Assembly (NCBI GenBank): GCA_001871075.1
Contig: MNUP01000123.1
Span: 1 to 58,779, forward strand
Direction: 5' to 3'
DNA: 58,779 bases
From: Candidatus Desantisbacteria bacterium CG1_02_49_89
Lineage (GTDB): Bacteria > Desantisbacteria > UBA1551
The position numbers and the translations under genes were made by a program. The notes below the pieces were generated by a model. The model ran no database searches and was not told the origin of the DNA. It worked only from the letters and a program-made list of their open reading frames with translations. Of this stretch, positions 3,908 to 58,779 are shown piece after piece; the first letter of the stretch is position 1; the number at the start of each line of letters is the position of its first letter.

Positions 3908-4965
3908 AAACCTTCTTTTTAACCCAACCGGACCTAAATAAATTCCTGGCTTCCATGCTTGGCAAGGGCTGTGAACTGTTCGCTCCGTTCAGGGTGATGG
4001 ACAGCATACGCCTTGAAAAGATCAATGACGCTTCAAAGCTGGGCGAGATCGTTCTTGACGGGGTCAGGGCTGACCAGCCGATGAAGTCCTTTTTCTTCTA
4101 CACCAAAGAAACAGTCGCAATCCTGCCGAAATCAGCGGCAAATCCCAATAAACCAGTAAAAAGACTTATAGTCGGCGCGAAGGGATGCGATCTGCATGCC
4201 CTTAAAGCGTTTGACAAGGCATACCTTGAAGAGGGTATAGTGCCTGAGCCTTTCTACCAGGAAAGAAGGCAGTCCACGTACATAATCGGCAGCGACTGCG
4301 GCTATTGCTTAGATTCGTGCTTCTGCACTTTGCTGGGTTCAAAACCGTTCCCGGTCGAAGGTTTTGACCTCAACCTTTCAAGCGCGGATGGCGGGTTCGT
4401 GATGGACGTGGGTTCGGACAAAGGCGAGGAGCTTATTGACGAGATGGGCAGGAGCGGGATCTCCGTCTCCGAAGTGCTTTCGCAGCAGATAGACGCGAGG
4501 AACAGGAAAAGGGATGAACTTACAAAACGCCTGGCAGAGGCAAATAAAGAGTTCGAGGTGCCTAAAAAATTCGATGACCTGTGCAGGCTTGCTTTCAATT
4601 CAGAGGTATGGAAAGGCCTTGCGGACGAGAAATGCGTCCAGTGCAACGGATGCCTGCATACCTGCCCCACCTGTTACTGTTTCCTTCTTTACGACACGAA
4701 GAAACAGGATATTTCTGAAAGGGTGAGGATATGGGACGCGTGCATAAACTCGGGTTACGGAAGGGTGGCAGGGGGAGCGAACCCGCGCCCGACTTTACAA
4801 GCCAGGCTGCGCCACAGGTTCTTCCACAAGTTCCTGTATTTCTTTGACAATTTCAATATGTTCGCGTGCAGCGGGTGCGGCAGGTGCTTCAATGTGTGCC
4901 CTGGCAAGATCGAAATACGCGACACCTTTAGACAGATTAGCTCAAAGGTCAAAGCTCAAAGCTGA
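3904..4965 (+). CDS. AsrA / sulfhydrogenase beta-like 4Fe-4S protein
   Basis: GAKGCDL, CVQCNGCLHTCPTCYCF, RHRFFHKF and CSGCGRCFNVCP motifs. Confidence 0.85.
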   Translation: MKTFFLTQPDLNKFLASMLGKGCELFAPFRVMDSIRLEKINDASKLGEIVLDGVRADQPMKSFFFYTKETVAILPKSAANPNKPVKRLIVGAKGCDLHALKAFDKAYLEEGIVPEPFYQERRQSTYIIGSDCGYCLDSCFCTLLGSKPFPVEGFDLNLSSADGGFVMDVGSDKGEELIDEMGRSGISVSEVLSQQIDARNRKRDELTKRLAEANKEFEVPKKFDDLCRLAFNSEVWKGLADEKCVQCNGCLHTCPTCYCFLLYDTKKQDISERVRIWDACINSGYGRVAGGANPRPTLQARLRHRFFHKFLYFFDNFNMFACSGCGRCFNVCPGKIEIRDTFRQISSKVKAQS

Positions 4966-5223
4966 AAGCTGAAAGTTAAAAGCTATAAGATTTCCACGAA
5001 AACACTCCGCCCGTCTTTCAGCGGGCGAGACTTCACCCACCTAAAAGGATGGGCGAGGAAATCACGAAACAAACTTAACCACACGATTTCACACGATTTC
5101 CACAAGATTAATCTTCTACTTGACTCTTGACACTTAGCTTGCCCGCCAATCTTGCTGGGCGGGACTCTTGATACTAAAGATAATCACTGTAATCTCTTTT
5201 AAAATCATCGTAATCAGGATCTA

Positions 5224-6054
5224 ATGGAAAAGAACCCGTACCAGCCCATAGAGGCAAAATTATTGGACGTAATAACAGAAACCTCCAACATCAAGACTTT
5301 CGTGCTGCAGCCGCTTGAGGACATAGGGTTCAAAACCGGCCAGTTCATGGAGGTCACCTGCCCGGGCGTGGGAGAAGCTCCGTTCACGCCTTCGTCATCA
5401 CCCTTTATAAAGGAAAAGCTTGAGTTCACGATTATGAAAGCAGGCAGCGTAACAGCCGCCCTGCATGACATGAAGCCCGGGACAATCTTGGGTTTGCGCG
5501 GCCCGTTCGGTAAAGGCTACCCTCTTGAGGATTTTGAGGGAAAAGACGTGCTCATCGTGGGCGGGGGCGTGGGCCTTGCTCCCTTAAGGTCTTTGCTTCT
5601 TACTCTGTTAGAGGAAAGGAAAAAATACAAGAAAATACTGCTGAACTACGGCGCAAAGACACCGAACGACATCGTTTACAAGGGCTGCGTGTGCGGTTGG
5701 TGCGAGATAAAGCCAACGCTTGACGTGAGGCTCACGGTTGACAGTGATGACAACAACGAGCGGCCGAAAGGATGCGGGGTTGGGCTTGTGACAACCACGT
5801 GCGACGACCTTCCGTTAGACCCGAAAAAAAGCATAGCGATCGTGTGCGGCCCGCCTATCATGATGAAATTCACGACACTGAAGCTGCTGGACTGCGGCTA
5901 TGTACCAAAACATATATATCTTTCAATGGAAAAGAACATGTCATGCGGCCTGGGAATATGCGGTCACTGCATGCTGGACAAATACTTCTGCTGTAAGGAC
6001 GGGCCGGTTTTTACATACGAGCAGCTGAAGGACATTCCGGACATCTGGGCGTAG
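5224..6054 (+). CDS. AsrB / sulfhydrogenase gamma-like FAD/NAD(P)-binding 2Fe-2S subunit
   Basis: GQFM, GEAPF, RGPFGKGY, GGGVGLAPL, VCGPPIMM and MSCGLGICGHC..CKDGPVF motifs. Confidence 0.9.
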   Translation: MEKNPYQPIEAKLLDVITETSNIKTFVLQPLEDIGFKTGQFMEVTCPGVGEAPFTPSSSPFIKEKLEFTIMKAGSVTAALHDMKPGTILGLRGPFGKGYPLEDFEGKDVLIVGGGVGLAPLRSLLLTLLEERKKYKKILLNYGAKTPNDIVYKGCVCGWCEIKPTLDVRLTVDSDDNNERPKGCGVGLVTTTCDDLPLDPKKSIAIVCGPPIMMKFTTLKLLDCGYVPKHIYLSMEKNMSCGLGICGHCMLDKYFCCKDGPVFTYEQLKDIPDIWA

Positions 6055-6087
6055 TTAATTGCAGGGTCAATCCCTGCAATTAACTAC
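6051..6087. repeat. GTAG..CTAC REP-like hairpin supplying the stop codon of the upstream gene
   Basis: GTAGTTAATTGCAGGG-TCAAT-CCCTGCAATTAACTAC forms a perfect 16-bp stem. Confidence 0.7.
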
Positions 6088-6228
6088 CAGTTAAAGGTTA
6101 AAAGTTAAAGGTTAAAAGTTTACCACATAAACTATATAAACTGCATCCGCAACCACGGATTAACTCGGATTAGCACGGATTGTAACTCTGTAAAGTTTAT
6201 AAACTATATAAACTATGGAAACTAAAAA

Positions 6229-6728: not shown

Positions 6729-7682
6729 ATGGAAAACATATTTTTATACCTCTTGTATTTTGTTTTATTCTCAGTGCTGACAGCGGTCATCGGGCTTCTT
6801 GCCAGCTGGGTTGACAGGAAGGTTACCGCAAGGGTCCAGTACAGGGTGGGACCGCCCTGGTATCAGGGTTTTGCGGACTTCCTCAAGCTGATGGGCAAGG
6901 AAACCGTTGTGCCGGAAGGCGCCAGGTTCACCGGATTCCTGATTTCCCCGCTCATCGGGCTTGCCGGCATAGCGCTTGTTTCAGTCATCGTCTGGGTCGT
7001 AAACCTCAGACTGGCGTCTTCATTCGTGGGGGACCTGATAGTTGTCCTGTACCTCCTTGTCCTGCCTTCACTCGCTGTCATTCTGGGCGCTTCCGCTTCC
7101 CGCAACCCGCTGGCAGGCGTGGGCGCAAGCAGGGAGATGAAGCTGATGCTGGGGTACGAACTGCCGTTTGTCCTGGCAATGATAGTGCCGATTCTCAGGA
7201 GCGGGGGTATGCTCAAGCTGAACGACCTCCTGGTGTATCAGCAGAATAACGGGTCGTTCCTTTCCGGCGGTATAGCTGGAATAAGCATTTCAGGCGCTAT
7301 CGCGTTTATAACAGCGATTATCTGCATGCAGGCAAAACTCACCCTTGTTCCTTTCGACATCCCTGAGGCAGAGACGGAAATAATGGCGGGCGTCTACATT
7401 GAGTATTCGGGACCCGCGCTTGCCGTTTTCAAGCTCACAAAGGCAATGATGCTTTTTACGGTCCCGGCTTTCCTGATAACGGTTTTCTGGGGAGGGATGA
7501 ATTTCAGCTCGCCGATAAACTGGATCCAATCTATTCTTAAATATATCGTTTTACTGGTAATTATTATCCTCATCAGAAACACAAATCCCAGGCTGCGCAT
7601 AGACCAGGCGATGAAGTTCTTCTGGGGCAAGCTTAGTTTCCTTGCGATAGCTGCTCTGATCCTTGCGGTGTTCGGATTTTAA
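6729..7682 (+). CDS. Membrane subunit, NuoH/HycD-like
   Basis: DRKVTARVQYRVGPP, PFDIPEAETEI..G...EYSG and PRLRIDQ motifs. The start is ATG 6729, not 6363. Confidence 0.92.
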   Translation: MENIFLYLLYFVLFSVLTAVIGLLASWVDRKVTARVQYRVGPPWYQGFADFLKLMGKETVVPEGARFTGFLISPLIGLAGIALVSVIVWVVNLRLASSFVGDLIVVLYLLVLPSLAVILGASASRNPLAGVGASREMKLMLGYELPFVLAMIVPILRSGGMLKLNDLLVYQQNNGSFLSGGIAGISISGAIAFITAIICMQAKLTLVPFDIPEAETEIMAGVYIEYSGPALAVFKLTKAMMLFTVPAFLITVFWGGMNFSSPINWIQSILKYIVLLVIIILIRNTNPRLRIDQAMKFFWGKLSFLAIAALILAVFGF

Positions 7683-7767
7683 ACGTGTCAACGTATCAAC
7701 GTGTCAGCGTGTCAGAGTTTTAATCTGTGTAATCTCGCTTTTGAAATCTGTGTAATCGGCGGTTGAT

Positions 7768-17125: not shown

Positions 17126-17240
17126 GTCATTGCGAACCGAAGCCGCGAGCTGAAACCACGAGCAAGGCGTGGTGGGCAGCGTGGCGGGCGGTGAAGCAAT
17201 CTAGCATTTAGATTGCCACGCCCTTCGGGCTCGCAATGAC
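17126..17240. repeat. RPE-like palindrome with nested insert, inside the operon
   Basis: GTCATTGCGA...GAAGCAATCTA..TAGATTGCCACG...CTCGCAATGAC. Confidence 0.7.
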
Positions 17241-18502: not shown

Positions 18503-18504
18503 GC

Positions 18505-29887: not shown

Positions 29888-29986
29888 AGATTACAGCGAT
29901 AACTGAACGATTACAGCGATAAAAAATTTAAAGTATTTATCGATGCCATCGATCTTTTAATCGCTGCAATCATTCCAAAGGAAAAA

Positions 29987-39798: not shown

Positions 39799-40755
39799 AT
39801 GACAAAGCTTCAGGGAATAGGTAAAAAAGAACTGGAAGAGAAGATCAGGCAGGCGTACGGCCTGCTTTCGCCATGCAGGCTTTGCCCGCGCGCCTGCGGG
39901 ACAGACCGCCTGAAAAACAAAAAGGGATACTGCAAGGCAGGATTGCTTCCCGAGATAGCAAGCTATCACGCGCACCACGGGGAAGAGCCGCCGATCTCAG
40001 GCTTTAAAGGTTCGGGCACTATTTTTTTCAGCCACTGCAGCCTGCGCTGCGTTTTCTGCCAGAATTATTCCCTGAGCCAGCTGGGCGAGGGCGCGGAAGT
40101 CACCATACAGGAGCTGGCGGAGATCATGCTCAAGCTCCAGGGAATGGGCTGCCACAACATCAATTTCGTGACCCCGACGCATTACACCGCGCAGATCCTC
40201 GCGGCGCTCGCAGCCGCAAAGGACAAAGGCCTGGGAATCCCGCTTGTTTACAACTGCGGCGGTTATGAATCGGTTGAGACGCTGAAAATACTGGACGGGG
40301 TCATTGATATATATATGCCTGATTTCAAATACGGGGATAACGCCCCGGCCAAAAAATACTCGGGCGCGGAAGACTACGCGGAACGGGCAAAAGAAGCGCA
40401 CAGGGAAATGTATAAGCAGGTTGGAGGCTTGAAAGCCGAAGGCGGGATCGCCGTTAGCGGTTTGCTGATCCGCCATCTTGTTTTACCGAACCGCCTCGCC
40501 TCAAGCGAAAAAGTGTTTGAGTTCATCGCGAAAGAACTTTCCCCGGACATGGCGGTCAACATTATGGCGCAATACTATCCAGCCCATCTGGCAAATAAAT
40601 ATGATGAAATAAACAGGCTCCCCGCGGTAAACGAATACACGGAGGCTTTGCGGGCCGCGAAGTCCGCGGGTCTTAACCAGGGCTGGCGCCAGACAACCGG
40701 TACGCTCGCGCGCGAAAAGATCCCCGAGTGGAAGGACAGCCTGAAAGACAGCTGA
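39799..40755 (+). CDS. Radical SAM protein (PflX-like)
   Basis: CRLCPRAC, HHGEEPPISG, CSLRCVFCQN, HNINFVTPTH, DIYMPDFKY and RHLVLP motifs. Alternative start 39775. Confidence 0.9.
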   Translation: MTKLQGIGKKELEEKIRQAYGLLSPCRLCPRACGTDRLKNKKGYCKAGLLPEIASYHAHHGEEPPISGFKGSGTIFFSHCSLRCVFCQNYSLSQLGEGAEVTIQELAEIMLKLQGMGCHNINFVTPTHYTAQILAALAAAKDKGLGIPLVYNCGGYESVETLKILDGVIDIYMPDFKYGDNAPAKKYSGAEDYAERAKEAHREMYKQVGGLKAEGGIAVSGLLIRHLVLPNRLASSEKVFEFIAKELSPDMAVNIMAQYYPAHLANKYDEINRLPAVNEYTEALRAAKSAGLNQGWRQTTGTLAREKIPEWKDSLKDS

Positions 40756-40868
40756 CAAGCTTAAAAGCTTACAAGTTAACAAGCTGACAAGCTTATAAGT
40801 TTAAGATATTATTTACCTGTAAGCTTATGGACTTGTAAGCTGTTTTGCGCGTAACTTTAAGAGGAAAA

Positions 40869-42928: not shown

Positions 42929-44866
42929 ATGGAAGAAATAAAAGGTTCGAGGCAGAGCAAAATAATCGCGGCAGGCCTGCTGTTCATCATATTTTTCGCA
43001 TCCGCGGGGCTGGTGTTCTGGAGGCTTATAAAGGACAACGATGACCTGGCGCGGGTTATTTTCGTGCAGGTGATCGCCCTTATTCTTTTTATGGTCTGGG
43101 TTACAAAAGAGGGCGGCATAAAATTCAGGAAAAACCCGCTGAACCTGCCTGTTCTGCTGTATGCCGGCGCGAACGCGGTCGCGCTGTTTGCCACTTCGAA
43201 TATTTACGAGAGCCTGACCGCTATGCTGAAGATCGTTATTTACTGCCTGATCTTTTTTCTCGCGGCGAACAACCTGAAAACAAAGGATGCGGAAAGGTCT
43301 TCCGTAACCGTTGTGATCATGGGTTTTGTGATCGCAGTCATAGGCCTCCTGCAGTATTTCGGCCTTGACTGGTTCAGGTTCCTGTATTCTGCCGCACCTA
43401 CGAACCGCGTGTTCTCGATACTGGGCAATCCCGATTTCCTCGGGGGTTTCCTGGCGCTGGTGCTTCCGCTTTCCCTCGTCCTGGTGCTGAATTTCGGGTT
43501 CAAGGGAAGGGAAGGGATCTTCGGTTCGATCTCTTTTGCCGTGATACTCCTCTGCCTGCTCCTGACAGCGACCCGCAGCGCGCTCATCGCGTTCATCGGT
43601 TCCCTTATCTTCCTCAGCATAATCGTTTTGCTGCAGAAAGGGATGAAAAACCTTAAAAAGAGATGGATCTTTATGCTGGTCTTTTCGGTTGTCATAGTCC
43701 TGATCCTCGGGTTTTCCGGCAGGGGCAGGGTCAAGAGCTTCCTATTCAGGTTCGCTTCTGTTTTAAGCCCGCAGACGCTCAAAACAGACGGCGCTGTGCA
43801 GTATAGATTAGCCATATGGAAAACAAGCCTGCTTATGTTCAAAGAACATCCGGTAGCCGGCGTCGGCACAGGGGTTTTCAAGCTCCATTACCCGTTTTAC
43901 CAGGCGAAGCTGCGCCAGGCGGATCCGTTGATCCCGTTTTCCTCCTCGCAGGAGTCGCGCGTTCACAATGAATATCTTCAGGCGCTTGCCGAGACAGGGG
44001 TCATCGGGATCGCGGGCTTTTTCTGGCTTGCGGTATGCGCGATATTCTACGGGGTAAAATACATAGCCGGCGCGAAGGAGCCGAGGCAGCGGATCTTTCT
44101 TATCGGGCTGGTATCAGGCGCGTCAGTTGTGCTGCTGGACAGCGTTTTCGCTTTTCCTTTCCACCTTACTTCGCACGCGACTCTTTTCTGGCTGTTCCTG
44201 GGGTTGATAGTAGTGATCGGTGAGAGCGCTGGAACTCAGATTTCCGCAAAAGATGCGGGTAAACCCGCGGGGCAGGAACCGGTTAAACAGAGATCAAAGA
44301 TAAAGAAGAAGATGATCGTCAGCAGGCGTTCCTGGGAACTGATATCGGTCGCGTGGGTCGCTTCCGCAGTCCTGATAATACTTATACTGCGTTCTTTTTT
44401 CGGCGCGTTCTATTACAAGCAGGGCATAGTATACGGCAACAACCAGATGGACCAGCAGTCGATCGAAAGCTACAAACGGGCGATAAAGCTTTCACCCTAT
44501 GACCCGGAGATACATTTCACCTGGGGATATATCTGCCTGAACAGCGGTATGATAGACGACGGCCTGGCTGAATTCAAACTCGTGGAAAAACTCTACCCGT
44601 GGAACGAGGACAACCTCCTCAACCTGGGAGTGGTTTATAACAACAAGAGGGAACCTGGAAAAGCGCTTGATTATTTCAGGAAGGCGATAATGCTGAACCC
44701 CGGGATAGGCGCGGCGTATTTCAACGTGGCTGGGATATACCTGAATTACTACAGCAACTCGCCCTGGGCGAAAGAAGAGGCGGTGAACTACTGCAGGAAA
44801 GCCGTTGAAATAGAACCGTCTAACAGTTATTACAGGGAAGTGCTGGAGAAGCTGATAAAAGAGTAA
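42929..44866 (+). CDS. O-antigen ligase-like membrane protein with TPRs (paralog)
   Basis: SILGNPDFLGG, TATRSA, HPVAGVG and HNEYLQALAETG motifs, with TPRs. Confidence 0.85.
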   Translation: MEEIKGSRQSKIIAAGLLFIIFFASAGLVFWRLIKDNDDLARVIFVQVIALILFMVWVTKEGGIKFRKNPLNLPVLLYAGANAVALFATSNIYESLTAMLKIVIYCLIFFLAANNLKTKDAERSSVTVVIMGFVIAVIGLLQYFGLDWFRFLYSAAPTNRVFSILGNPDFLGGFLALVLPLSLVLVLNFGFKGREGIFGSISFAVILLCLLLTATRSALIAFIGSLIFLSIIVLLQKGMKNLKKRWIFMLVFSVVIVLILGFSGRGRVKSFLFRFASVLSPQTLKTDGAVQYRLAIWKTSLLMFKEHPVAGVGTGVFKLHYPFYQAKLRQADPLIPFSSSQESRVHNEYLQALAETGVIGIAGFFWLAVCAIFYGVKYIAGAKEPRQRIFLIGLVSGASVVLLDSVFAFPFHLTSHATLFWLFLGLIVVIGESAGTQISAKDAGKPAGQEPVKQRSKIKKKMIVSRRSWELISVAWVASAVLIILILRSFFGAFYYKQGIVYGNNQMDQQSIESYKRAIKLSPYDPEIHFTWGYICLNSGMIDDGLAEFKLVEKLYPWNEDNLLNLGVVYNNKREPGKALDYFRKAIMLNPGIGAAYFNVAGIYLNYYSNSPWAKEEAVNYCRKAVEIEPSNSYYREVLEKLIKE

Positions 44867-45021
44867 TTATGAATTATGAGTTATGAATTATGAGTCAACA
44901 GCAAGGATTTTTAATTAATATTTTCTTAAATATTATTTCTTAACATCTTTTCATAACATTTTCACCTAACAGATTAACACGCAACCCGCCAACACGTAAC
45001 AGTTTTTTACAGGAGGCAGAC

Positions 45022-46023
45022 GTGACCTGCAAGGAGAGAGTAAAGAAAGCGATCGCGCATGAACAGACCGATATCGTACCCTACCAGATAGGGTTTACTA
45101 TTCCGGTATACAAATCGATGCAGGAATATTACAAAGATCCCGGGTTTGAAGCCGGGATAGGCAACCATCTCGCGGGTGTTGAGGCGGCCCTGAAATGGAC
45201 AGAGGCAAAACCGGATTTCTTGCAGGACGCGTTCGGCGTTATCTGGGACAAGAGCGTTGACAAGGATATAGGTGTTGTGAGCAACGCGGTCATAGCGTCT
45301 AAAAAAGACCTTGACAGTTACAGATTCCCCGACACGCGCGGCAAGGACCTTTACGCGCACATCCCGGCCGCGATCAATTCCTGCAAGGACTTTTTCATTC
45401 TGGGGAACATCGGCTTTTCCCTTTTTGAGCGCGCCTGGACAATGCGGGGTATGGAAAACCTGCTTATGGACATGGTAACGGACGAAGGATTTGTTGACGC
45501 GCTGCTGGACAGGATACTGGAATTCAACTTAAGCCTGGTCGAAGAGCAGGTGAAATTCCCGCTTGACGGTTTCATGTTCGGGGATGATTGGGGGCAGCAG
45601 CATGGGCTGATAACAGGCCCGAAACTCTGGCGGAGGTTTATAAAGCCCAGGATAGCGAAGATGTACGCGAGAGTGCACCGGGCAGGGCTTCCGGTCTGGA
45701 TACACTCCTGCGGGGATGTGGACGAGCTGTTCCCTGACCTGATAGAGGCAGGCCTGGACGTTTTCAACCCGTTCCAGCCGGAGGTCATGGATGTTTACGA
45801 GATGAAAAAGAAGTTCGGCGGCAAGCTGTCTTTCTACGGTGGATTGAGCACGCAGAAGATCCTTCCTTACGGCACTCCTGACGACGTGCGCAGGGAAACA
45901 AAGAAACTTATGAAGGAAATAGGAAGGGACGGCGGATATATACTGGCGCCAGCCCACTCCATACCCAGGGGCACGCCGCCAGAGAACATAGCCGCACTTA
46001 TCGAAACAGTTAATAAACAATAA
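45022..46023 (+). CDS. Uroporphyrinogen decarboxylase family protein
   Basis: LFERAWTMRGMENLL, GDDWGQQ, HSCG and GGYILAPAH motifs. Confidence 0.85.
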   Translation: MTCKERVKKAIAHEQTDIVPYQIGFTIPVYKSMQEYYKDPGFEAGIGNHLAGVEAALKWTEAKPDFLQDAFGVIWDKSVDKDIGVVSNAVIASKKDLDSYRFPDTRGKDLYAHIPAAINSCKDFFILGNIGFSLFERAWTMRGMENLLMDMVTDEGFVDALLDRILEFNLSLVEEQVKFPLDGFMFGDDWGQQHGLITGPKLWRRFIKPRIAKMYARVHRAGLPVWIHSCGDVDELFPDLIEAGLDVFNPFQPEVMDVYEMKKKFGGKLSFYGGLSTQKILPYGTPDDVRRETKKLMKEIGRDGGYILAPAHSIPRGTPPENIAALIETVNKQ

Positions 46024-46105
46024 GCGTGTCAGCGTGTCAGCGTGTCAACGTTTTAATCTGTGTAATCTCGTTTTTGAAATCTGTGTAATCAATAAAAGGA
46101 GAAAT

Positions 46106-46993
46106 ATGATTTCGACACCGCTGGTAAAGAGAATAATATGGATGGCGCTGAAAGAGGATATCGGCGCGGGTGACGTTACAACCAATTCGCTTGTCCCGAA
46201 GGGCGCGAAAGCAAGGGCCCGCCTCTACGCGCGCGAAGACGGCATTATCGCGGGCCTGGATATCGCTATCGATATATTCCGCCACCTTGACGGGAATATA
46301 AAGGCTGAAAAATTCGTGGAAGACGGCGCGAAGGTGAGAAAAAACCAGCCGCTTGCCGAGATCAGGGGAAGCACAAGAGCGCTGCTTTCAGGGGAACGCA
46401 CCGCGCTTAATTTTCTCCAGAGCCTGTCAGGCGTGGCAACGCTTACAGGCAAATACGTTGACGTGGTAAAGCCCTGCAGGGTGAAGATATTGACCACCCG
46501 CAAGACGACTCCGCTTCTCCGCATACTTGATAAATACGCCGTAAGGGTGGGGAAAGGGCATAACCACAGGATGGGGTTGTATGACATGGCCATGGTAAAG
46601 GACAATCACCTTAAAATACAAATGCAAAATGCAAAATGTAAAATGAAAAATGTAAAAGTAACGGATATTGTCAAAACACTGAGAAGAAAGATACCGAAAG
46701 GGATGAGGATAGAAGTAGAGGCGAAGAATATAAGGGAAGTAAGAGCGGCGCTGGAATCCGGGGCGGATATAATAATGCTGGATAACATGCATACGCGGGT
46801 GATGAGGAAAGCGGTGAATCTTATCCACCGGTCCTTCGGCTCACACGGGCACGTAAGGCCGATGATCGAGGCGAGCGGGAATGTCGGGCTGCACAACGTG
46901 AAGACGATCGCAAAGACGGGGGTTGACTGGATCTCGATAGGCAGGCTTACCCATTCAGCGCCGGCACTGGATATTTCCCTGGAAATAGTTTAA
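46106..46993 (+). CDS. nadC: Nicotinate-nucleotide pyrophosphorylase (carboxylating)
   Basis: EDIGAGDVTT, ERTALNF, TRKT, NHRMGLYD..VKDNH, IMLDNM, EASG and LTHSA motifs. Confidence 0.95.
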   Translation: MISTPLVKRIIWMALKEDIGAGDVTTNSLVPKGAKARARLYAREDGIIAGLDIAIDIFRHLDGNIKAEKFVEDGAKVRKNQPLAEIRGSTRALLSGERTALNFLQSLSGVATLTGKYVDVVKPCRVKILTTRKTTPLLRILDKYAVRVGKGHNHRMGLYDMAMVKDNHLKIQMQNAKCKMKNVKVTDIVKTLRRKIPKGMRIEVEAKNIREVRAALESGADIIMLDNMHTRVMRKAVNLIHRSFGSHGHVRPMIEASGNVGLHNVKTIAKTGVDWISIGRLTHSAPALDISLEIV

Positions 46994-47073
46994 AACAGAT
47001 GCTGGATACTGGATCCTAGATCCTAGATGAAGGAATTTTATTTAAATTGATTCCTTGATCCAGCATCCAGGAT

Positions 47074-47243
47074 CTAGTGTGGTGTTACATAAATCCCTTG
47101 ACATTTGATTCTGCTTTGAGTTGTCATTGCGAGCGACCAAAGGGAGCGTGGCAATCTCGATTTTTAGGTCGAGATTGCTTCGTCGTTAACACTCCTCGCA
47201 ATGACAGCCCAAATGTAAAGATCTGTTAGAGACACCACACTAG
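47074..47243. mobile_element. MITE-A copy 2
   Basis: Matches 64-233 except for one base in the left end. Inserted at the CTAG of a GATCCAG/CATCCAG heptamer array. Confidence 0.9.
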
Positions 47244-47281
47244 CATCCAGGATCAGCAGTGAACGATATGCGATAGGCGAT

Positions 47282-48109: not shown

Positions 48110-48252
48110 ATCGTGTCAACGTGTCAGAGTGTCAGCGTATCAGCGTAAATTCAATTAAAACGACCTAAATGCTAATTTATTTAAATATAGATCCTTGTTT
48201 CTGCGTTGACACGTTGATACGTTGACACATTGATACGCTTTTGGGGGGTAAA

Positions 48253-48948: not shown

Positions 48949-49082
48949 TTATTTAATTATGAATTATGAATGATGAGTTATGAGTTAAAAACAAGGTATT
49001 TAATTTGAATAAAATTCCATGCTGTTAATTCATAATTCATAACTCATAATTCATAATTTCAGTAGAAAATAGAGGAGATAGA

Positions 49083-50225: not shown

Positions 50226-50230
50226 AAATA

Positions 50231-50313
50231 AACCACGGAGGCACTGAGGCACGGAGAATTATTAGAGCCATAGAGTCAAAGTAGAAACTCTGTGTCTCCG
50301 TGTCTCTGTGGTT
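50231..50313. repeat. Empty 9-mer inverted tandem-repeat element
   Basis: ACCACGGAGGCACTGAGGCACGGAG ... CTCTGTGTCTCCGTGTCTCTGTGGT. Confidence 0.75.
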
Positions 50314-50327
50314 ATTCTGGAGGATTT

Positions 50328-51596: not shown

Positions 51597-51676
51597 TACA
51601 TTGCAAAAGTCAAAATGCAAAATGTAAAATGCAAATTGAAAAGATTGTCACGAAGGCACGGAGAAAACCATAAAAA

Positions 51677-52630: not shown

Positions 52631-52712
52631 GTAGTTGAAAGTTGAAAGCTAATCTAAAAATAGTTCCTTCATTCATAATTCATAACTCATAATTCATAAT
52701 TGGGGGTAGAAT

Positions 52713-53264: not shown

Positions 53265-53396
53265 ACCACAGAGGCCACTGAGAAAAATCTTTCGCCACTG
53301 AGAGCACTGAAGGCACTGAGTTTTTGTAACTCAAACCTTCAGGTTTGACGGTAGATTATTAAATATAAGATTCAATATTTAATAAAAAGAGAGAAA

Positions 53397-54462
53397 ATGA
53401 AGAAAATATTTTTAATAACAATTACTACTTTTTGTTTAGCAGCTAACTTATACTCAGCTAAAAAAGTGGTTGTTGTTGGTGATAAATTAAATGTATATTC
53501 AGAAAATGGTAGTGAATTATTTGAAATAGATTTACATGTTCAACCATTCGATATAAAGATTTTTTCAGAAGAGAGTCATGCAGATTGTAAGAGCTATTAT
53601 GATAATGGCAAGGTAAAAAGAATCGAATATTTCTTTAGAAAAAAACCAGCAGGATTTGTTGATTTTACCAGAACTGGCGAGATTAAAAAAGCTTTTATTA
53701 TCTATAAAACTGGATTTGAAACTGATATATACTATGGTGGCGGAAGACAAGTTAAGGAGATAATTAAAAATGTAGGTTTAATCAGAAAAGGATATCCTGC
53801 AGAATATCACTATTTCTTTTCTATGAGAGGGGAATTGAATAGAATAGATTTGTATTATAAAGAATCCGAACAGTTTTACATTCTTAAAGAGGATATTCTT
53901 TTTGAAGGCAAGAAGGCAATAATAAGGAATGTTTTAAATATTAGAGATGAAGAATATAGGGTCTATTCATGCGTAATTGATGAATTTGAGAAGCGTCCAG
54001 AAAAATCGAAATGGAAATTTTTAGTTGTTCAAGATGAAACCACATTATATTTTAATGATAAATTTAGCCAAAAAACGGTAGATTTTTTTGAAAAAGAATC
54101 AAAAGAAAAATTGTCAGAAGATATTATTGCGGATTTTTCAAACCAAAATAAAAGACCGGAGACCTTATAAATTATCAAATAAATTTAAAACAAATGTAAA
54201 TATATTTTTAATTTCAAAGGAAAGTAAAGAAGAAATTTTTAATAGAGAGAAAGGATGGGAATATTTTTACAAAATATATCCCGATTCCACTGGTATAGCG
54301 GAGATTTCTAGGGTAGGATTTAATAGAACTGAGGACACAGCCTTTGTTTATTATGGAATCAGTTTTGATTATGGACACGGTGGAATAGGGTATTATATAT
54401 TATTGAATAAAATAAATGACAAGTGGGAAATTGTAAAAAAAGTAATGGTATGGATAGCATAA
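53397..54462 (+). pseudogene. AT-rich secreted hypothetical protein, frameshifted near 54160
   Basis: Signal peptide in 53397-54170. The C-terminal GWEYFYKIYP..SRVGFN..WIA domain continues in another frame (54088-54462). Confidence 0.6.
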
Positions 54463-54657
54463 TAAATTGAGTGATAGACAGAATTAATATAGCTTTTTAA
54501 TTTTAATTCTCTCAGGGCTGAAGCCCTGAGTTACAATTTCTCAGTGAATTCAGTGCGTTAGTCCCTGCGTTTAGGTTTGAATAAACAAACCTGCAGGGGT
54601 CCTCAGTGGCAAAGTGTATTTCTCTGTGTCTCCGTGCCTCTGTGGTGAGGAGTTTAC

Positions 54658-56058
54658 ATGAAAGATATTCTTGAAGCTATACGCGACAGGGCGAAGAAGA
54701 AGGGCGTCAGTTTCATGGACGCGAGGTTCGTCGAGAACGAATCCACAAGCATCAGCCTGCAGGACGGCAAGGCGGACAAGGTATCGTCAGGCAAAAGCGC
54801 GGGCATCGGCGTAAGGGTTATTTCAAGCGGCGCCTGGGGTTTCGCGACAACCAACGAGACCGCGCTGAAAAGCGCTGAGGATTGCCTTGACCAGGCGATA
54901 AGCATGGCAGACGCGTCCGCTGAAAAAGGCAGGGTCGTGGAGGTAGCAAAGGTAAGCCCGGTGATCGACGCGGTGAAGGCGAAATTTGAGATCGACCCCC
55001 GCTCCGTCCCTTTTAAGGAAAAGGTGGACAAAGTCGTCATGTTCGAGAGCGAGGCAAGAAAGGTTGCCCCGGAAAAAATATCCAATACGATCGCCGGGTA
55101 CGGCGATATCTGGCAGAGGGAAGTGATCTGCAACACGTACGGGACCCTTGTGGAGAATGAATATGTCCGCACCCATACATATATAATGGTTGTTACAAAA
55201 GAAGGGGCGCTAAGGCAAAGGGCGTCCGAGCACGACGCGATTGTCGGCGGATTTGAGCTTATCAGAAGGATAGAGCCGGAAAATTTCAGCGTGAAGGCCG
55301 CAAAAAGGGCTGTGGCGCTGCTGAGCGCGAAAAGGGCGCCTTCGGGCATGTTTCCTGTGCTCCTGCACCCGGATATTGTTGGCCTTTTCACCCACGAAGC
55401 TATCGGGCATAACGCGGAGGCGGACGGGGTTATGGCAGGCGTGTCTATACTTGAGGGAAGGGTCGGGCAGAAAGTGGCTTCAGAACTCGTGACGATAGTT
55501 GACGACGCGACTATTGAAGGAATGTGGGGGTCATATAAATACGATTCAGAAGGAGTTCCCGGCAGGAGAAGGGTCCTTGTCGAAAACGGGGTGTTAAAAG
55601 GTTTCATGCACAGCCTTGAAACCGCCGCGAAATTCAACGCTGAGCCCAACGGGAGCGCGAGGGCTCAGAATTTCAATAACAGGCCTATCGTGCGAATGAG
55701 CAATACGAATATCCAACCCGGTAAACAGCCTTACGCGGAACTTCTGAAAAGCATTGACAACGGAGTTATGCTGACCAAGGGGCTGGGGGGTTACGTGAAC
55801 CCTAACAAAGGGCAGTTCACGTTCAGCGCGGGTGAGGGCTGGATGATACGGAAAGGCGAGCTTGCAGAGCACATAAGGGACGTGAATATGTCCGGTATCC
55901 TGCTTGAAACCCTGCAGAAAATTGACGGCGTCTCGAAGGAATATGACCCGGATACACTTAAGGGCGGGATGTGCGGCAAGGGCGGCCAGGGAATGTTTGT
56001 TGGCGCCGGCGGTCCGTATGTCCGGGTGAAGGAACTGATGATAGGCGGCCAGGAGTGA
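54658..56058 (+). CDS. tldD: TldD metalloprotease
   Basis: GAWGFA, HEAIGHNAEAD, DSEGV, PIVRMSNT and CGKGGQ motifs. Confidence 0.93.
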   Translation: MKDILEAIRDRAKKKGVSFMDARFVENESTSISLQDGKADKVSSGKSAGIGVRVISSGAWGFATTNETALKSAEDCLDQAISMADASAEKGRVVEVAKVSPVIDAVKAKFEIDPRSVPFKEKVDKVVMFESEARKVAPEKISNTIAGYGDIWQREVICNTYGTLVENEYVRTHTYIMVVTKEGALRQRASEHDAIVGGFELIRRIEPENFSVKAAKRAVALLSAKRAPSGMFPVLLHPDIVGLFTHEAIGHNAEADGVMAGVSILEGRVGQKVASELVTIVDDATIEGMWGSYKYDSEGVPGRRRVLVENGVLKGFMHSLETAAKFNAEPNGSARAQNFNNRPIVRMSNTNIQPGKQPYAELLKSIDNGVMLTKGLGGYVNPNKGQFTFSAGEGWMIRKGELAEHIRDVNMSGILLETLQKIDGVSKEYDPDTLKGGMCGKGGQGMFVGAGGPYVRVKELMIGGQE

Positions 56059-56139
56059 CTTCAGCTGAAAGCTGAAAGTCAAAATCCTTAATAATCGGCG
56101 TAATCGTTATTTAAAAATCTGTGTAATCGGTGGAAAAAT

Positions 56140-57462
56140 ATGGAAAACTTGGTGGAAATTGCGGAATACGGGTGCGAAGTGGCAAAGAAGGAAGGCGCTG
56201 AGTTTGTGGATGTCGGCGTGCACAGCGGCATGGGAATGTCCGTGGATGTGGAAAGAGGCGCGGTAAAGCACGGGGACACGGCTGTTTCTTCGGGCGTGTC
56301 TGTCCGCGCTTTCATTAAAGGCGGAATGGGATTTACAGGCGCGTCCAGTTTGAAAAAAGAGGATGTGCGCGGCGCAGCGCTGAAAGCCGCGGCGCTCGCG
56401 AAGGTCGCGCAGCCGGACCCTGATTTTGTAAGCCTTCCTGAACCTTCCGGTTCCTACCCTGTTGTTGAAAAGCTGTGGGATGACAATATCCGGGGCGTCA
56501 GCGCCGGAAAGCTCGTCGGGTACCTGAGGAGATCAATAGAAGAAGTAAAGTCTGTAAGAGGAGATGCGATCATAAACGGCGGAGCAGGGCTGGGCCATTC
56601 AGAGAGCGCTATAGCCAATTCACTCGGTATCAGGGCCTCCATAAAAGGTTCAAGCATCCGCATGAGCACGTCGGTAACGTTCAAGGAAGGGGATGACGTG
56701 GGCACATACTTCGATTTTGACAACTCGCGGCTCCTTCCCGACTTTAATCCTTCAGGGATCGGGGTGAATGCCGCAAAAATGGCTTTGAAATTTTTAGGCG
56801 CGCGGCACATTCAGGGCGGGGTGATGCCTGTTGTGTTCGGCCCGCTTTCAGGCCTGAGCATTTTCAGGGTCATATGCTGGAATGCCAACGCCGAGGATAT
56901 ACAGAGGAACCGTTCCTACCTGATAGGGAAAAAAGGCGCGCAGATCGCCTCGGATATCGTGACCGTTGTTGATGACCCGCTCATTCCTGCCGGTATGGGG
57001 TCCGGCCCTTTTGACGGGGAGGGGTTCCCGCACAGCAGGCTTACCGTGATCGAGAAAGGGGTCCTTAAGACCTGGCTTCACAATTCCTACACCGCGAACA
57101 AGGGCAAGGAAAAAAATACAGGGAATTCAACGCGCGGCGGCACCAGCATTACGAATACCGTTGTTTCACTGGGCACGAAGACCGAAAAGGAGCTCATAAG
57201 CGAGATCAAGGACGGGCTTTATGTGGCTGTGGGAAGCATATTCCCGAATCCCCAGAGCGGCGACATCTCGGAAACAGTGGACTGGGGGTTCAAGATCGAG
57301 AACGGAGAGATAGCCTACCCGGTTAAAAACGTTATGATAGGGATGCATATGCTGGAGTTTATGAAGAACATTGACGCTATTTCAAGCGATTTCCGCGAGG
57401 AGCCCGGCGCTATAATGCCGTCTGTCAGGGTGCGCGACGTGCGCGTCGCCGGAGGCAAATAG
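56140..57462 (+). CDS. pmbA: PmbA/TldE family protein
   Basis: DDPL..PFDGEG, TGNSTR, GDIS..GFKIENGEIAYPV motifs. Lacks HExxH and lies next to tldD. Confidence 0.88.
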   Translation: MENLVEIAEYGCEVAKKEGAEFVDVGVHSGMGMSVDVERGAVKHGDTAVSSGVSVRAFIKGGMGFTGASSLKKEDVRGAALKAAALAKVAQPDPDFVSLPEPSGSYPVVEKLWDDNIRGVSAGKLVGYLRRSIEEVKSVRGDAIINGGAGLGHSESAIANSLGIRASIKGSSIRMSTSVTFKEGDDVGTYFDFDNSRLLPDFNPSGIGVNAAKMALKFLGARHIQGGVMPVVFGPLSGLSIFRVICWNANAEDIQRNRSYLIGKKGAQIASDIVTVVDDPLIPAGMGSGPFDGEGFPHSRLTVIEKGVLKTWLHNSYTANKGKEKNTGNSTRGGTSITNTVVSLGTKTEKELISEIKDGLYVAVGSIFPNPQSGDISETVDWGFKIENGEIAYPVKNVMIGMHMLEFMKNIDAISSDFREEPGAIMPSVRVRDVRVAGGK

Positions 57463-57683
57463 ATACTCGTGCATCGTGCATCGTTCTTCGTGCATCGTAA
57501 ATACCTCCTCGCCCCTTGCCTGCCCGCTAATCTTGGTGGAGGGCGGGAGAGGATGAAAGGTGAGGGGTTTAGGGTAACTCAGGGCTTTAGCCCTGAGCAA
57601 GTCAGTTTAAGTTCTCTTAAGTTCCCTGTTGAAAATTTTTTATCCGTGGAAATCCGTGGCTGAATTTTTTCCAGGAGGAGATC

Positions 57684-58646
57684 ATGAGCGTATTCTACAA
57701 AGAAATAAGGAGATGGTGGGGGCAGGCGATAGTGATAACGCTTGCCGTAATGGTTTCGGGCTGCGCGGCAAGGCCTTACAAAATGACGAATTTCTTCACT
57801 TCAAAGGCCATCAATGATCTGCGGGAAAAAAGGGTGGCTGTCATTCCCTTCAAGAACCTATCCCCGATCCCCGAGGCAACAGATATGCTTACGGATGAGT
57901 TCAACCTGCAGCTGGGGAAGCTGGGAAAATTCAGGCTGATCGAGAGGATAAGTATACAGGAACTGTTCAAAGAGCAGGACCTTGACCCCGAGCGCATAGA
58001 CGAAGCCACCGCGGTAAAGATCGGAAAAATGCTGGGAGCGAACGCGATAATACTGGGCACGGTCACCACTTATTACCCGTATAAATACAAGGAAAAAAAG
58101 GAAGCCGAGGAAAAAGAGAAGAAAGAGCTTGAAAGGGCAAGGATAGAAGCCGCTGGAGCGCCTAAAACCGTAGTGATCATTGAGCAGCAACCCGAAAAAC
58201 AACCGGTATTTGTGCCGCCGGGACAGCAGAAAGATAAGGAAAAGGGCTGGGAGAAGGACAAGGATAAAGAAAAGGAAAAAGATAAGGAAAAAGATAAGGA
58301 AAAAGATAAGGACAAGGATAAGGATAAAAAAAAGGAAGAAACCGAAGTAAAGAAAGACGAGGGTAATCCCTGGGTCGCTCTCGCGATCGTCGGCGGAATA
58401 ATACTCACTGCCGGGATACTTTTCTTTGCTTTGAGCCCCAAGCCTACCGCGGAGATCGGTATAAGCGTGCGCATGGTAAACGTTGAGACAGGCGAGCAGT
58501 TGTGGCAGGCGAAAGAGACCTTCAAGGGCAATGACCCCAGGATCCAGGCGCTTGTTGACCCGCAGGACAGGGATAAACTGGTGAAGGACGTTGAATTCCT
58601 CAGCCAGACCCTGTGCCGCGAATTCGCTCTTACAATAGAAAAATAA
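57684..58646 (+). CDS. CsgG/HfaB-like lipoprotein with a Lys/Asp/Glu-rich insertion
   Basis: Lipobox-like VSGC, RVAVIPF, LIERISIQELFKEQ, AVKIGKMLGANAIILG and VRMVNVETGE.LW motifs. Confidence 0.75.
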   Translation: MSVFYKEIRRWWGQAIVITLAVMVSGCAARPYKMTNFFTSKAINDLREKRVAVIPFKNLSPIPEATDMLTDEFNLQLGKLGKFRLIERISIQELFKEQDLDPERIDEATAVKIGKMLGANAIILGTVTTYYPYKYKEKKEAEEKEKKELERARIEAAGAPKTVVIIEQQPEKQPVFVPPGQQKDKEKGWEKDKDKEKEKDKEKDKEKDKDKDKDKKKEETEVKKDEGNPWVALAIVGGIILTAGILFFALSPKPTAEIGISVRMVNVETGEQLWQAKETFKGNDPRIQALVDPQDRDKLVKDVEFLSQTLCREFALTIEK

Positions 58647-58779
58647 CTAAATAACCACAGGTAAACACAGGTTAACACAGAAATACTTTTACAGGGAACT
58701 TAAGAGAACTTAAAATTCTTAGGTTAAACCCAGAAAAAGTAATAAGTTCAGTTTAAGTTCTCGTCAATTCCCTGTGAAA

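Follow-up and report, generated by a model that had tools for sequence, protein, structure and literature searches.

Paired arms of tandem repeats in the intergenic spacers of a groundwater bacterium: candidate gene-less copies of a foldback element

Elements between the genes of the window

The window analyzed here is the whole 58,779-nt stretch of contig MNUP01000123.1 and belongs to Candidatus Desantisbacteria bacterium CG1_02_49_89, an uncultured groundwater bacterium whose assembly (genome G000) is 93.5%-complete. The spacers between its genes contain elements in which two inverted arms of ~30 nt, each made of three to five tandem copies of a 7–10-nt word, surround a short AT-rich core. 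The sequence-only reading had named seven inverted pairs and a set of orphan arms: all seven pairs are present, and their predicted folds are long hairpins (z –3.6 to –7.8; hairpin energy against 200 dinucleotide shuffles per pair, none of which folds as well), and the orphan arms were borne out by TRF and direct reading. The elements of the window enclose no gene and no ORF; ‘empty shells,’ as they had been called, is a fair description, no IVP or GxxExxY gene being found in the window. The features are listed below, the inverted pairs without strand.

48955..49058, no strand: complete gene-less foldback (–35.0 kcal/mol, z –7.8)
48112..48238, no strand: complete element, 8-mer arms CGTGTCAA / TTGACACG, 57-nt AT-rich core (–48.1 kcal/mol, z –7.4)
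50231..50313, no strand: complete element, 8-mer arms CACGGAGG / CTCCGTGT (–42.1 kcal/mol, z –7.2)
46997..47254, no strand: heptamer-arm element CTGGATC / GATCCAG (46997–47075 alone: –32.5 kcal/mol, z –4.5)
40752..40844, no strand: element with 8-mer arms ACAAGCTT / AAGCTTGT-like and a short core (–25.9 kcal/mol, z –3.8)
29889..29970, no strand: degenerate pair GATTACAGC... / ...GCTGCAATC, upstream of uvrB (–20.7 kcal/mol, z –3.6)
58687..58779, no strand: hairpin CAGGGAACTTAAGAGAACTTAA / inverse, at the window end (–29.4 kcal/mol, z –5.7)
7682..7767, + strand: composite spacer, AACGTGTC x4 arm directly past the stop codon and two AATCTGTGTAATC words ahead of the start codon (TRF and direct reading)
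46023..46110, + strand: second composite copy, AGCGTGTC arm and AATCTGTGTAATC x2 (TRF)
4939..5109, + strand: unpaired arms AAAGCTG x6.6 (overlapping the stop codon) and CCACACGATTT x2.9 (TRF and direct reading)
6051..6224, + strand: spacer mosaic, a perfect 16-bp hairpin followed by unpaired arrays AGTTAAA, CACGGATTAA and TATAAACTA (TRF and direct reading)
44865..44893, + strand: unpaired left-type AATTATG arm, starting within the stop codon (TRF and direct reading)
51602..51635, + strand: unpaired TGCAAAA x4.9 arm, past serS (TRF and direct reading)
52633..52701, + strand: chimeric spacer, AGTTGAA left arm and right-type ATTCATA arm of the AATTATG family (TRF and direct reading)
53296..53320, + strand: unpaired CACTGAGAG 9-mer arm (TRF and direct reading)
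54621..54644, + strand: unpaired right-type TCTCTGTG arm, ending ahead of the tldD-like start codon (TRF and direct reading)
56063..56128, + strand: AGCTGAA x2.3 past the stop codon and one AATCTGTGTAATC word ahead of the next start codon (TRF and direct reading)
57467..57498, + strand: unpaired TCGTGCA x4.6 arm, 4 nt past the stop codon (TRF and direct reading)

Contigs from four independent metagenome runs span the elements, differing at 0–1 positions, 48112–48238 being bridged by contigs of all four, which shows that they are real DNA. The element at 48955–49058 belongs to the AATTATG family, with (AATTATG)n / (CATAATT)n arms round a core that is itself palindromic, and occupies the whole spacer between a nitroreductase and a URO-D-like gene. 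The termini of 50231–50313, AACCAC...GTGGTT, are of the arm type that flanks GxxExxY genes elsewhere in the genome, and the right arm of the CTGGATC element is interrupted by a 170-nt MITE-like insertion (47074–47243). The element at 40752–40844 is located between a radical-SAM gene and an O-antigen-ligase/TPR gene; at 29889–29970 TRF calls no tandem array; the CAGGGAACTTAAGAGAACTTAA family of 58687–58779 recurs inside cores on other contigs. The word AATCTGTGT, reported at 7722, 46055 and 56116, also occurs at 7745 and 46078. Small REP-type GC hairpins, separate from the arms, are nested within some cores.

Census, pairing and placement in the genome

Robust arrays (TRF, period 7–10, score of at least 40) number 1,090 genome-wide against 10 in a Markov-3 simulated genome; by period (7/8/9/10), the rows at this score are 607/227/164/127 in the genome and 0/0/3/7 in the simulated one. 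As in long simple sequence repeats (LSSRs), a unit within the range of 1–11 nt is copied head-to-tail to a length beyond chance (TRF against the simulated genome). Their density, 453 per Mb, is about 15 times that of both the same-order relative G001 (31 per Mb over 162 kb) and other bacterial DNA (31 per Mb across 2.15 Mb from 160 other loci). The robust arrays include 95 distinct heptamer classes (185 at a looser threshold), the unit varies within single arrays, and arm length stays at ~30 nt whatever the period (median 31/33/37/29 nt for periods 7/8/9/10). The largest family, AATTATG, comprises 114 arrays and has homologous cores in both orientations, with no pair arranged right-arm-first. 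Some arrays lie in frame within genes.

An inverted partner (Smith-Waterman score of at least 12 within 250 nt of the array) was found for 246 of the 1,090 arrays, in comparison with 54 having a direct partner and 4 having a partner in the reverse-only control (Fisher p 5e-74), so that inverted pairing exceeds the control, as the sequence-only reading had expected. Within the window, a recognisable inverted partner exists for 5 of the 24 robust arrays; the CTGGATC and CACGGAGG pairs are real, yet fall under the robust-array threshold. Complete elements amount to 157 genome-wide, with a median core of 43 nt, and one cluster of 63 cores is shared across several arm types. Between neighbouring spacers, direct long-range matches are as many as inverted ones (84 vs 55) and most arms are unpaired, thus housekeeping genes are not specially ‘enclosed.’

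These data bear on another possible origin, in which the arrays would be neutral replication-slippage microsatellites accumulating in unconstrained AT-rich spacers. Among the long simple repeats of many prokaryotes, heptanucleotides are the commonest class (Mrazek, 2007, cited in PMC4679880), and both the unit variation inside arrays and the in-frame copies would suit slippage. The excess of inverted partners, the fixed arm length, the conserved cores within families, the exact units common to IVP cassettes (see below) and the 15-fold lower density in the same-order relative make this origin most improbable. The arrays are also independent neither of each other nor of gene families (IVP/PDDEXK_3). 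That a constant architecture over many units is unlike slippage had been proposed from the start, and it agrees with the number of heptamer classes, the ~30-nt arms, the inverted excess and the arms abutting stop codons.

Where two genes run in the same direction, the elements follow the stop codon of the first and precede the ribosome-binding site of the second. Of the 1,090 arrays, 842 are intergenic (~198 expected), and a gap of less than 10 nt separates the stop codon from the start of 257 of the 722 arrays in co-directional spacers. Co-directional spacers are occupied in 514 of 1,219 cases, convergent ones in 20 of 61 and divergent ones in only 4 of 33 (divergent vs co-directional, p 4.6e-4). 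This placement, together with the avoidance of divergent spacers and the high stability of the folds, is what would be expected if the hairpins were host regulatory RNA evolved in place, acting as operon punctuation, mRNA 3′-end stabilisers, terminators or processing sites, and long transcripts are plausible since 1,680 of the 1,814 pairs of neighbouring genes share one direction. We consider this quite unlikely. Neither strand is favored among the stems of 128 elements, the sense strand being stabler in 63 and less stable in 64, with 309 G-U pairs in sense and 320 in antisense; an intrinsic-terminator scan of 40000–58779 passes over the elements, with no T-run behind right arms; Rfam gave no family matches for the hairpins; three quarters of the arms are unpaired; and the elements are missing from orthologous spacers of the same-order relative.

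A comparison of orthologous spacers, which the sequence-only reading had recommended between strains, was run here against G001, the nearest relative. Over 29 syntenic gene pairs the median spacer measures 133 nt in G000 as against 39 nt for its G001 counterpart, the G000 spacer being longer in 22 and shorter in 5. The orthologous spacers of G001 are without elements, including the one corresponding to 48955–49058, and the pattern is insertion-like.

Gene-bearing cassettes

Two gene families lie within arms of the same kind. Seven of the ten loci of IVP (PF05635), a four-helix-bundle protein that forms rings and is a relative of DGR Avd, are located between inverted heptamer arms, and four of the five genes for GxxExxY proteins (PDDEXK_3, PF13366, of PD-(D/E)XK nuclease fold) between inverted 8–10-mer arms with ends AACCAC...GTGGTT. 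Tandem arms enclose 28 of 1,851 genes, including 5 IVP/PDDEXK_3 genes, the background among other genes being ~23/1,846 (p ~2e-17); both family links, which the sequence-only reading had put forward, therefore hold in this genome. Two further families suggested there fared differently: none of eight GIY-YIG genes has tandem arms, and both DUF559 genes are flanked by GC-rich inverted repeats that are non-tandem. All gene-bearing cassettes are located between protein genes. Furthermore, 102 of the 592 heptamer arrays away from IVP loci match the unit of a resident IVP arm exactly, against 1 for reversed units. The link of IVP and GxxExxY to the arms is thus an observation, and so is the occurrence of identical units in copies with and without a gene.

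The paralogs are divergent, with identities of only 24–57% for IVP and 37–47% for PDDEXK_3, and each divergent paralog has its own arm unit. One armed IVP copy, on contig C125, is a broken gene and looks like a decaying intermediate. Twenty IVP loci in six other genomes all have a period 7–10 array within 300 nt, and 12 of them have inverted arms (score of at least 15), among which G027 4/4, G011 3/3 and G012 1/1. In G027, G012 and G003 the IVP loci carry arms or arrays though 15–20 kb samples of these genomes held no array; armed loci in genomes without sampled free arrays indicate that the arms belong to the cassette.

The order of events could be the opposite one: hairpins belonging to the host, or independent of it, came first, IVP and GxxExxY genes invaded later by homing into their loops, much as IVS elements take the place of rRNA helix loops, and the shells had never been cassettes. 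The biggest shell family, AATTATG, is indeed without a gene-bearing member in the 93.5%-complete assembly; divergence among the gene paralogs is old, while the shell cores of a family resemble each other; and published IVS elements occupy pre-existing rRNA helices (PMC4990558). This order is improbable in our view, given that IVP loci are armed even where the sampled DNA lacks free arrays (G027, G011 and G012), that an own arm unit per paralog is expected if gene and arms travel together, and that a decaying armed IVP gene is present.

A candidate bacterial foldback element

We regard it as moderately likely that the spacers hold gene-less copies (‘shells’) and half-copies of a selfish foldback element, the shells being those of IVP/GxxExxY cassettes. 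The shells would derive from the cassettes, or depend on them in trans, as MITEs do on insertion sequences, and would spread at the DNA level within the host lineage; the tandem make-up of the arms may present an oligomeric protein with a periodically repeated surface to bind, and slippage together with template switching inside the palindrome could keep both arms in step. If transcribed, the elements would form ~30-bp stems (mean ~–34 kcal/mol) punctuating polycistronic mRNAs, comparable to the 28-bp stem of the IVP-bearing intervening sequences in 23S rRNA. This RNA-level part is weak, because sense and antisense stems are equally stable, the locus turned up in no RNA run and the 93.5%-complete assembly yielded no RNase III gene.

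Several observations count against the shell reading. For about three quarters of the arrays no partner could be recognised, and many are thus unable to form the hairpin; inspection of the 157 elements revealed no evident target-site duplication at their borders; and no transposase was found among the scanned arm-enclosed genes (20 housekeeping and 5 IVP/PDDEXK_3; the other 3 of the 28 are C47:59952-60680, C8:3440-3697 and C89:8407-8955). The paralog identities give no sign of recent movement of the IVP/PDDEXK_3 genes themselves, the largest shell family is gene-less, and the action of the two protein families on DNA is putative. In addition, no insertion/excision polymorphism was seen, the four metagenome runs being identical in sequence in contigs that drop rare variants.

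Among known systems, REP/BIME (REPIN)-RAYT and bacterial MITEs likewise consist of small palindromes repeated hundreds of times between genes; they are lineage-specific, placed within operons past stop codons and used as targets by other insertions, with gene-less forms far outnumbering gene-bearing ones. The elements described here differ, since neither a conserved GTAG head nor a target-site duplication nor a transposase was found; in the 157 elements inspected the arms begin with many different words and are tandem arrays of these rather than one conserved palindrome, and the associated genes encode four-helix-bundle and PD-(D/E)XK-fold proteins, not Y1 transposase. PF01797 (Y1/RAYT) has 10 matches in the genome. 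A MITE of an insertion sequence was rejected on the same grounds of duplication and transposase.

Drosophila Foldback (FB) has long inverted terminal arms of short tandem repeats in variable number, and most of its copies are gene-less. Being eukaryotic, kilobase-sized and unrelated in sequence, it offers an analogy of architecture alone. Cyanobacterial STRR are grouped with intergenic heptamer repeats as similar.

ORF-bearing intervening sequences (IVS) of 23S rRNA with the S23p/IVP gene, as in Coxiella burnetii, carry a PF05635-family ORF in the loop of a stem of ~28 bp terminal inverted repeats, and are sporadic, horizontally acquired and termed selfish (PMC4990558). A stem of this kind with a PF05635 ORF in the loop is found at 7 of the 10 IVP loci. 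IVS elements lie in rRNA helices and are cut out by RNase III, and tandem-unit arms do not appear in the description given there (PMC4990558), unlike the mostly ORF-less elements between protein genes found here, which share the sporadic distribution. The 23S rRNA gene of this genome (C88:34-2876, matching model positions 15–2912) has no extra length, hence no insertion in helix 9, 25 or 45.

TAACTGA direct repeats of Beggiatoaceae, Cyanobacteria and Bacteroidetes, read as translational regulator sites (MacGregor, 2015, PMC4679880), are tandem heptamers in 2–6 copies, nearly all intergenic and near gene ends, patchily distributed, with stop codons in all three frames. As far as that account of them extends, they consist of a single unit in direct repeats upstream of start codons, with one inverted case in 170 sets, whereas the elements here have many units, arms abutting stop codons, often inverted pairs, and gene cassettes. 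TAACTGA is outside the 25 commonest heptamers of the genome and the arrays abut stop codons, so they were not assigned to these repeats.

The nearest precedent, and the only one that we found in print, is the set of paired tandem ‘regulator sites’ of Geobacter metallireducens, of octa-, nona- and heptanucleotides, 53 pairs in 3 classes of 24, 21 and 8 with the same layout (Aklujkar et al., 2009, PMC2700814). According to its sections on these sites, they too have 3–5 tandem 7–9-nt units in opposite-strand pairs at variable distance and tens of intergenic copies, are species-specific (absent from G. sulfurreducens) and have IS elements inserted at a fixed distance, which recalls the MITE-like insertion here; the elements of our genome show the same combination of tandem units, opposite-strand pairing, intergenic position and species specificity (PMC2700814). 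The differences are in scale, 157 pairs and ~1,090 arrays here, and in interpretation, the Geobacter pairs being read as IHF/HU sites with no IVP or GxxExxY link stated in those sections (PMC2700814). Could the arms then be binding-site arrays for a nucleoid-associated or global regulator of this type? The unit CACGGAGA found here, when reverse-complemented, gives the Geobacter unit TCTCCGTS[Y] (PMC2700814), and arm length is constant. We hold this to be very unlikely: 95 to 185 heptamer classes are too many for one sequence-specific protein, the arrays are not conserved in the nearest relative and avoid divergent, promoter-containing spacers, and IHF/HU binding is itself put forward only as a proposal in the sections concerned (PMC2700814).

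A broader extension of the shell reading, speculative and rather unlikely as a whole, is that IVP and the GxxExxY protein act in trans on bacterial foldback mobile elements of a class not described so far, whose arms would be periodic binding arrays matched to each paralog. In this lineage the apparent loss of RNase III would have removed the cost of long dsRNA operon stems, with shells reaching ~40% of gene junctions. If true, this one class would show itself also as rRNA intervening sequences, as the Geobacter ‘regulator sites’ and in much of the surplus of heptamer repeats between genes that has lacked an explanation.

Repeat-built spacers of the window

Tandem Repeats Finder (TRF) returned 86 rows for the window, the majority of which have a period of 7-10 nt and lie between ORFs; the genes are nearly all on the + strand and of ordinary housekeeping type (an Mbh/Mrp-type hydrogenase operon, valS, uvrB, serS, nadC and tldD/pmbA). 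When all the window spacers were read, a recurring layout was found, in which an array beginning a few bases past the stop codon is followed by an AT-rich core and by a second array, whose end lies 10-20 nt upstream of the next start codon, immediately before a GGAGG-type ribosome-binding site. The sequence-only reading had named seven inverted pairs of such tandem arms, together with a number of orphan arms. All seven pairs were found, each as a single long hairpin (z from -3.6 to -7.8, with 0 of 200 shuffles as good for any pair); the pair at 29889-29970 is degenerate, and the CTGGATC pair is interrupted by a 170-nt MITE-like insertion. The orphan arms were likewise borne out, with AATCTGTGT at 7722, 7745, 46055, 46078 and 56116. 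A strict threshold was passed by 24 arrays of the window, and an inverted partner was recognisable for 5 of them, compared with 0/24 in the reversed-sequence control. Furthermore, many spacers are mosaics whose left and right halves come from different families, as at 52633-52701. Other features of the window are the following (C-numbers denote contigs of the assembly):

64-233 and 47074-47243: twin copies of the 170-nt MITE-like element, with 34-nt inverted ends (CTAGTGTGGTGT...), the second interrupting the CTGGATC pair; also on contigs C53, C7, C96 and C55, with repeated insertions at the edge of GATCCAG-type arms
2772-2796 and 17167-17189, with ~100 nt around: a further dispersed repeat, …GCGTGGTGGGCAGCGTGGCGGGC… beside tgtcattgcga… hairpins, recurring in spacers and inside other elements
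18503-22286: low GC (about 37-43%), with fragments of DUF6531, RHS-repeat and beta-propeller ORFs; resembles an RHS-type locus of foreign origin or in decay
22287-22868 and 24237-24584: ~200-nt repeated blocks (ccagaccgcctgaaaaggcggtttttt..., hairpins, a TTGACA/TATAAT-like end), upstream of an AAA_14/DUF4143 ATPase gene and of a small ORF + PIN-domain gene pair (24585-25243)
26078-28963: valS, with several in-frame tandem 7-8-nt arrays at 27926-28403 encoding low-complexity inserts, and an interior inverted pair (28260-28289 / 28366-28395) flanking a conserved coding segment
42172-42202: perfect ATCCAGG x4.4 array within an O-antigen-ligase/TPR gene
46612-46661: AAATGTA/TAAAATGCAAAATG array within the nadC ORF

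Abundance, pairing and distribution of the arms

The assembly (2.48 Mb, 150 contigs, 93.5% complete) gave 3,328 TRF rows, with a marked excess at periods 7-10, the neighbouring periods 6 and 11 having only 90 and 101 rows; at score >=40 the counts are far above those of a genome simulated with a third-order Markov model. The arms have a near-constant length whatever their period.

Table. Tandem arrays of periods 7-10 in the genome
Period (nt); TRF rows; rows with score >=40; the same, simulated genome; median arm length (nt); copies per arm; complete elements
7; 1,043; 607; 0; 31; 4.4; 102
8; 530; 227; 0; 33; 4.1; 26
9; 413; 164; 3; 37; 4.1; 16
10; 330; 127; 7; 29; 2.9; 13

The 1,090 non-redundant robust arrays (period 7-10, score at least 40) correspond to one per ~2.3 kb; 842 are intergenic, that is, between our own gene calls in a genome whose non-coding share is 18%, while 105 are at gene edges and 143 deep within genes. 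Gene orientation is extremely uniform, with 1,680 of 1,814 adjacent pairs co-directional by rough gene calls across the whole genome. An array is present in 514 of 1,219 spacers between co-directional genes, in 20 of 61 convergent spacers and in 4 of 33 divergent ones (p 4.6e-4 for divergent against co-directional), and 257 of the 722 arrays of co-directional spacers begin less than 10 nt past the upstream stop codon.

Pairing was evaluated by local alignment of each array with its own 250-nt flanks (score at least 12), which replaced a test for partners with the exact unit (79 of 2,146 arrays) that proved overly strict, given the variation of units inside an array. Among the robust arrays, 246 have an inverted partner, 54 a direct one and 4 a partner for the reversed array; at a looser array threshold (n=2,146) the corresponding counts are 345, 94 and 12, with 23 for the complemented array. 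The paired architecture that had been claimed for these spacers is thus far above chance (246 vs 4 of 1,090), but some three in four arms lack a partner. Complete elements number 157, with a median core of 43 nt. Inverted arms at 250-3,000 nt were rejected as real pairs, since they do not outnumber direct ones (55 vs 84); these matches reflect the same family sitting in neighbouring spacers.

The largest arm family, AATTATG, includes 114 arrays at no more than one mismatch. With a strict pattern, 53 left arrays, 47 right arrays and 17 left-right pairs were counted, and no pair in the opposite order. Its cores are homologous, themselves palindromic and present in both orientations, some with nested small GC hairpins. 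Clustering of 131 cores by blastn placed 63 in one cluster, which also includes elements with CGTGTCAA-type and GATCCAG-type arms, and left 48 as singletons. Single-linkage clustering of heptamer units at no more than one mismatch chains 594 of 603 arrays together and therefore says nothing on their relatedness. Elements of the 8-10-mer class usually end in AACCAC(N)G ... C(N)GTGGTT, a motif found 234 times in intergenic DNA vs 25 for the reversed motif. A CACNG head is present in 51 of 113 10-mers (4 expected); as a feature common to all classes it was discarded, with 8-mers at chance (14/220 vs 12 expected). Integron attC sites, considered for the AAC...GTT ends of the 8-10-mer class, seem unlikely, the flanks being syntenic housekeeping genes.

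The sole same-order genome of the collection (G001, SerRS 81% identical) has 5 robust rows in 162 kb, or 31 per Mb, vs 453 per Mb in the genome under study, and at the syntenic nitroreductase / URO-D-like / serS locus its spacers are short and without tandem arms. For 29 co-directional gene pairs with conserved synteny, the stop codon and the aligned start are a median 39 nt apart in the relative vs 133 nt here, where the spacer is longer in 22 pairs, shorter in 5, and holds arrays in 12. Other bacteria (2.15 Mb from 160 loci) also have 31 per Mb, with 120 loci without any array. The inverted tandem-arm layout was nevertheless found in unrelated sequences, namely collection genome G008, a Planctomycetota MAG, an Anaerolineae MAG and several metagenome contigs. 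The architecture is therefore patchy across phyla and amplified in this lineage. A SerRS search of metagenome and genome contigs for nearer relatives gave none above 60% full-length identity and one partial match at 65% (L099). Positions 46900-52800 of the window are present in 24 DNA runs from groundwater and aquifer metagenomes, with no RNA run listed. In the contigs of 4 runs no copy-number or presence/absence variant of the elements was seen, and the mismatches at 48985-49027 and 50267-50284 belong to contigs from other copies of the same families. This extreme natural case and its nearly array-free relative form a useful pair for comparison.

Association with IVP and GxxExxY genes

The sequence-only reading had suggested a link between such arms and two gene families, those of the four-helix-bundle protein IVP (PF05635) and of GxxExxY (PDDEXK_3, PF13366, with a PD-(D/E)XK nuclease fold), and the genome holds this up. 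PF05635 has 11 matches at 10 loci, 7 of which are bracketed by inverted heptamer arms (score 15-28, controls at most 10) with a different unit at each: AGTGGCC, CGTCGTA, GTCATGG, AGCTCAT, AACGTGT (on C23), AATTGCA and GGTTAAA, the last around a broken gene. The remaining three loci have direct 8-mer arrays on both sides, a contig end and no close arms, respectively. Inverted 8-10-mer arms bracket 4 of the 5 PF13366 genes (CACGGAGA on C114, CACGGATGCA, CACGAATTT, AATCACTGT), and the fifth has weak arms. As background, inverted tandem arms lie on both sides of 28 of 1,851 genes, 5 of the 28 being IVP or PDDEXK_3 genes; 20 of the other 23 were scanned and all are housekeeping genes (e.g., murG, coaBC, ftsA, smpB) sitting between two neighbouring elements of the same family. 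The contrast between 11 of 15 IVP and PDDEXK_3 genes and 23 of 1,846 others is strong (Fisher, p about 2e-17, with slightly different flank windows in the two tests). The same association did not extend to GIY-YIG genes (tandem arms at 0/8) or to DUF559 genes, both of which (2/2) lie between inverted repeats that are GC-rich and non-tandem.

All these cassettes, in which arms bracket a gene, have the same orientation as their neighbours and fill the stop-to-start gap like the gene-less elements, or shells. The paralogs are old, with 24-57% (IVP) and 37-47% (PDDEXK_3) identity. Of the 592 heptamer arrays outside the IVP loci, 102 are built of a unit identical to that of one of the seven IVP arm pairs of this genome, compared with 1 when those units are reversed. 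In six other genomes, inverted arms (score at least 15) were found at 12 of 20 IVP loci and an array of period 7-10 within 300 nt at all 20, and armed IVP loci also occur in genomes whose sampled DNA held no free arrays. Neither gene family was found in the searched DNA of G001, which is 87% complete. The interiors of 10 wide arm pairs contained no further cargo family beyond one 49-aa ORF of the zinc-ribbon-like DUF5679, between AATTATG-type arms at C36:4770-5158, which may be a further small cargo or have arisen by chance.

Nature of the elements and published parallels

Hairpins between genes could act in RNA, as terminators or processing sites, or in DNA. In 128 co-directional elements folding energies average -33.7 kcal/mol for the sense strand and -34.1 for the antisense, the sense strand being more stable in 63 and less stable in 64, and G-U pairs number 309 and 320, respectively. 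There is therefore no mark of the transcribed strand: the palindromes behave like symmetric DNA and are not canonical terminators. Rfam gave 0 matches across the window. RNase III was sought in this genome with PF14622 and PF00636, without a match, and by tblastn with the G001 enzyme, without a hit; its gene is present in each of G001, G008 and G005. The gene downstream of rnc in G001 here follows, at the syntenic place (C27:1-680), fabF and a 340-nt spacer filled with repeats. With the assembly 93.5% complete, we regard this absence as a lead rather than a finding.

The IVP-bearing intervening sequence of 23S rRNA, as described for Coxiella (PMC4990558), is a 428-nt selfish element whose 28-bp terminal stem is cut by RNase III and carries the ORF in its loop; the 23S rRNA of the present genome has no insertion. 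The closest printed description of paired tandem arms is in the Geobacter metallireducens genome paper, which lists 24 pairs of 4 x GTTGCTYN, 21 of 3 x TCTCCGTS[Y] and 8 of 5 x MTYCTGA, on opposite strands at variable distance, absent from G. sulfurreducens and proposed as IHF/HU sites, with ISGme8/9 inserted at a fixed distance (PMC2700814). TAACTGA direct repeats are treated by MacGregor (2015; PMC4679880), which also cites a general excess of heptanucleotide repeats (Mrazek, 2007). No paper tying tandem inverted arms to IVP or GxxExxY genes was found in a search mainly of open-access journals, and a search on STRR gave nothing relevant.

In the simplest account, the arms would belong to small cassettes with an IVP or GxxExxY gene, and the window elements would be shells and half-shells of these cassettes, without the gene and multiplied in this lineage. 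The arms, tandem in make-up and fixed at ~30 nt, may offer an oligomeric protein a periodic surface to bind, and a unit of its own for each divergent paralog fits a putative cognate recognition. No transposase, target duplication or polymorphism was seen at the elements in the borders and enclosed genes scanned and in the contigs of 4 runs. The interpretation first drawn from the sequence is supported, except for its GIY-YIG/DUF559 part and for the arms being mostly unpaired. This element type is a new form among the known palindromic intergenic repeats and rRNA intervening sequences.

The 23S rRNA intervening-sequence protein has been known since the early 1990s. If the account given here is true, orphan PF05635 proteins would acquire a testable role, and PF05635 and GxxExxY would supply the proteins of a selfish cassette whose arms are periodic; this would also explain the commonness of 7-nt tandem repeats between bacterial genes, and the annotated 'regulator sites' of Geobacter would be the scars of mobile elements.
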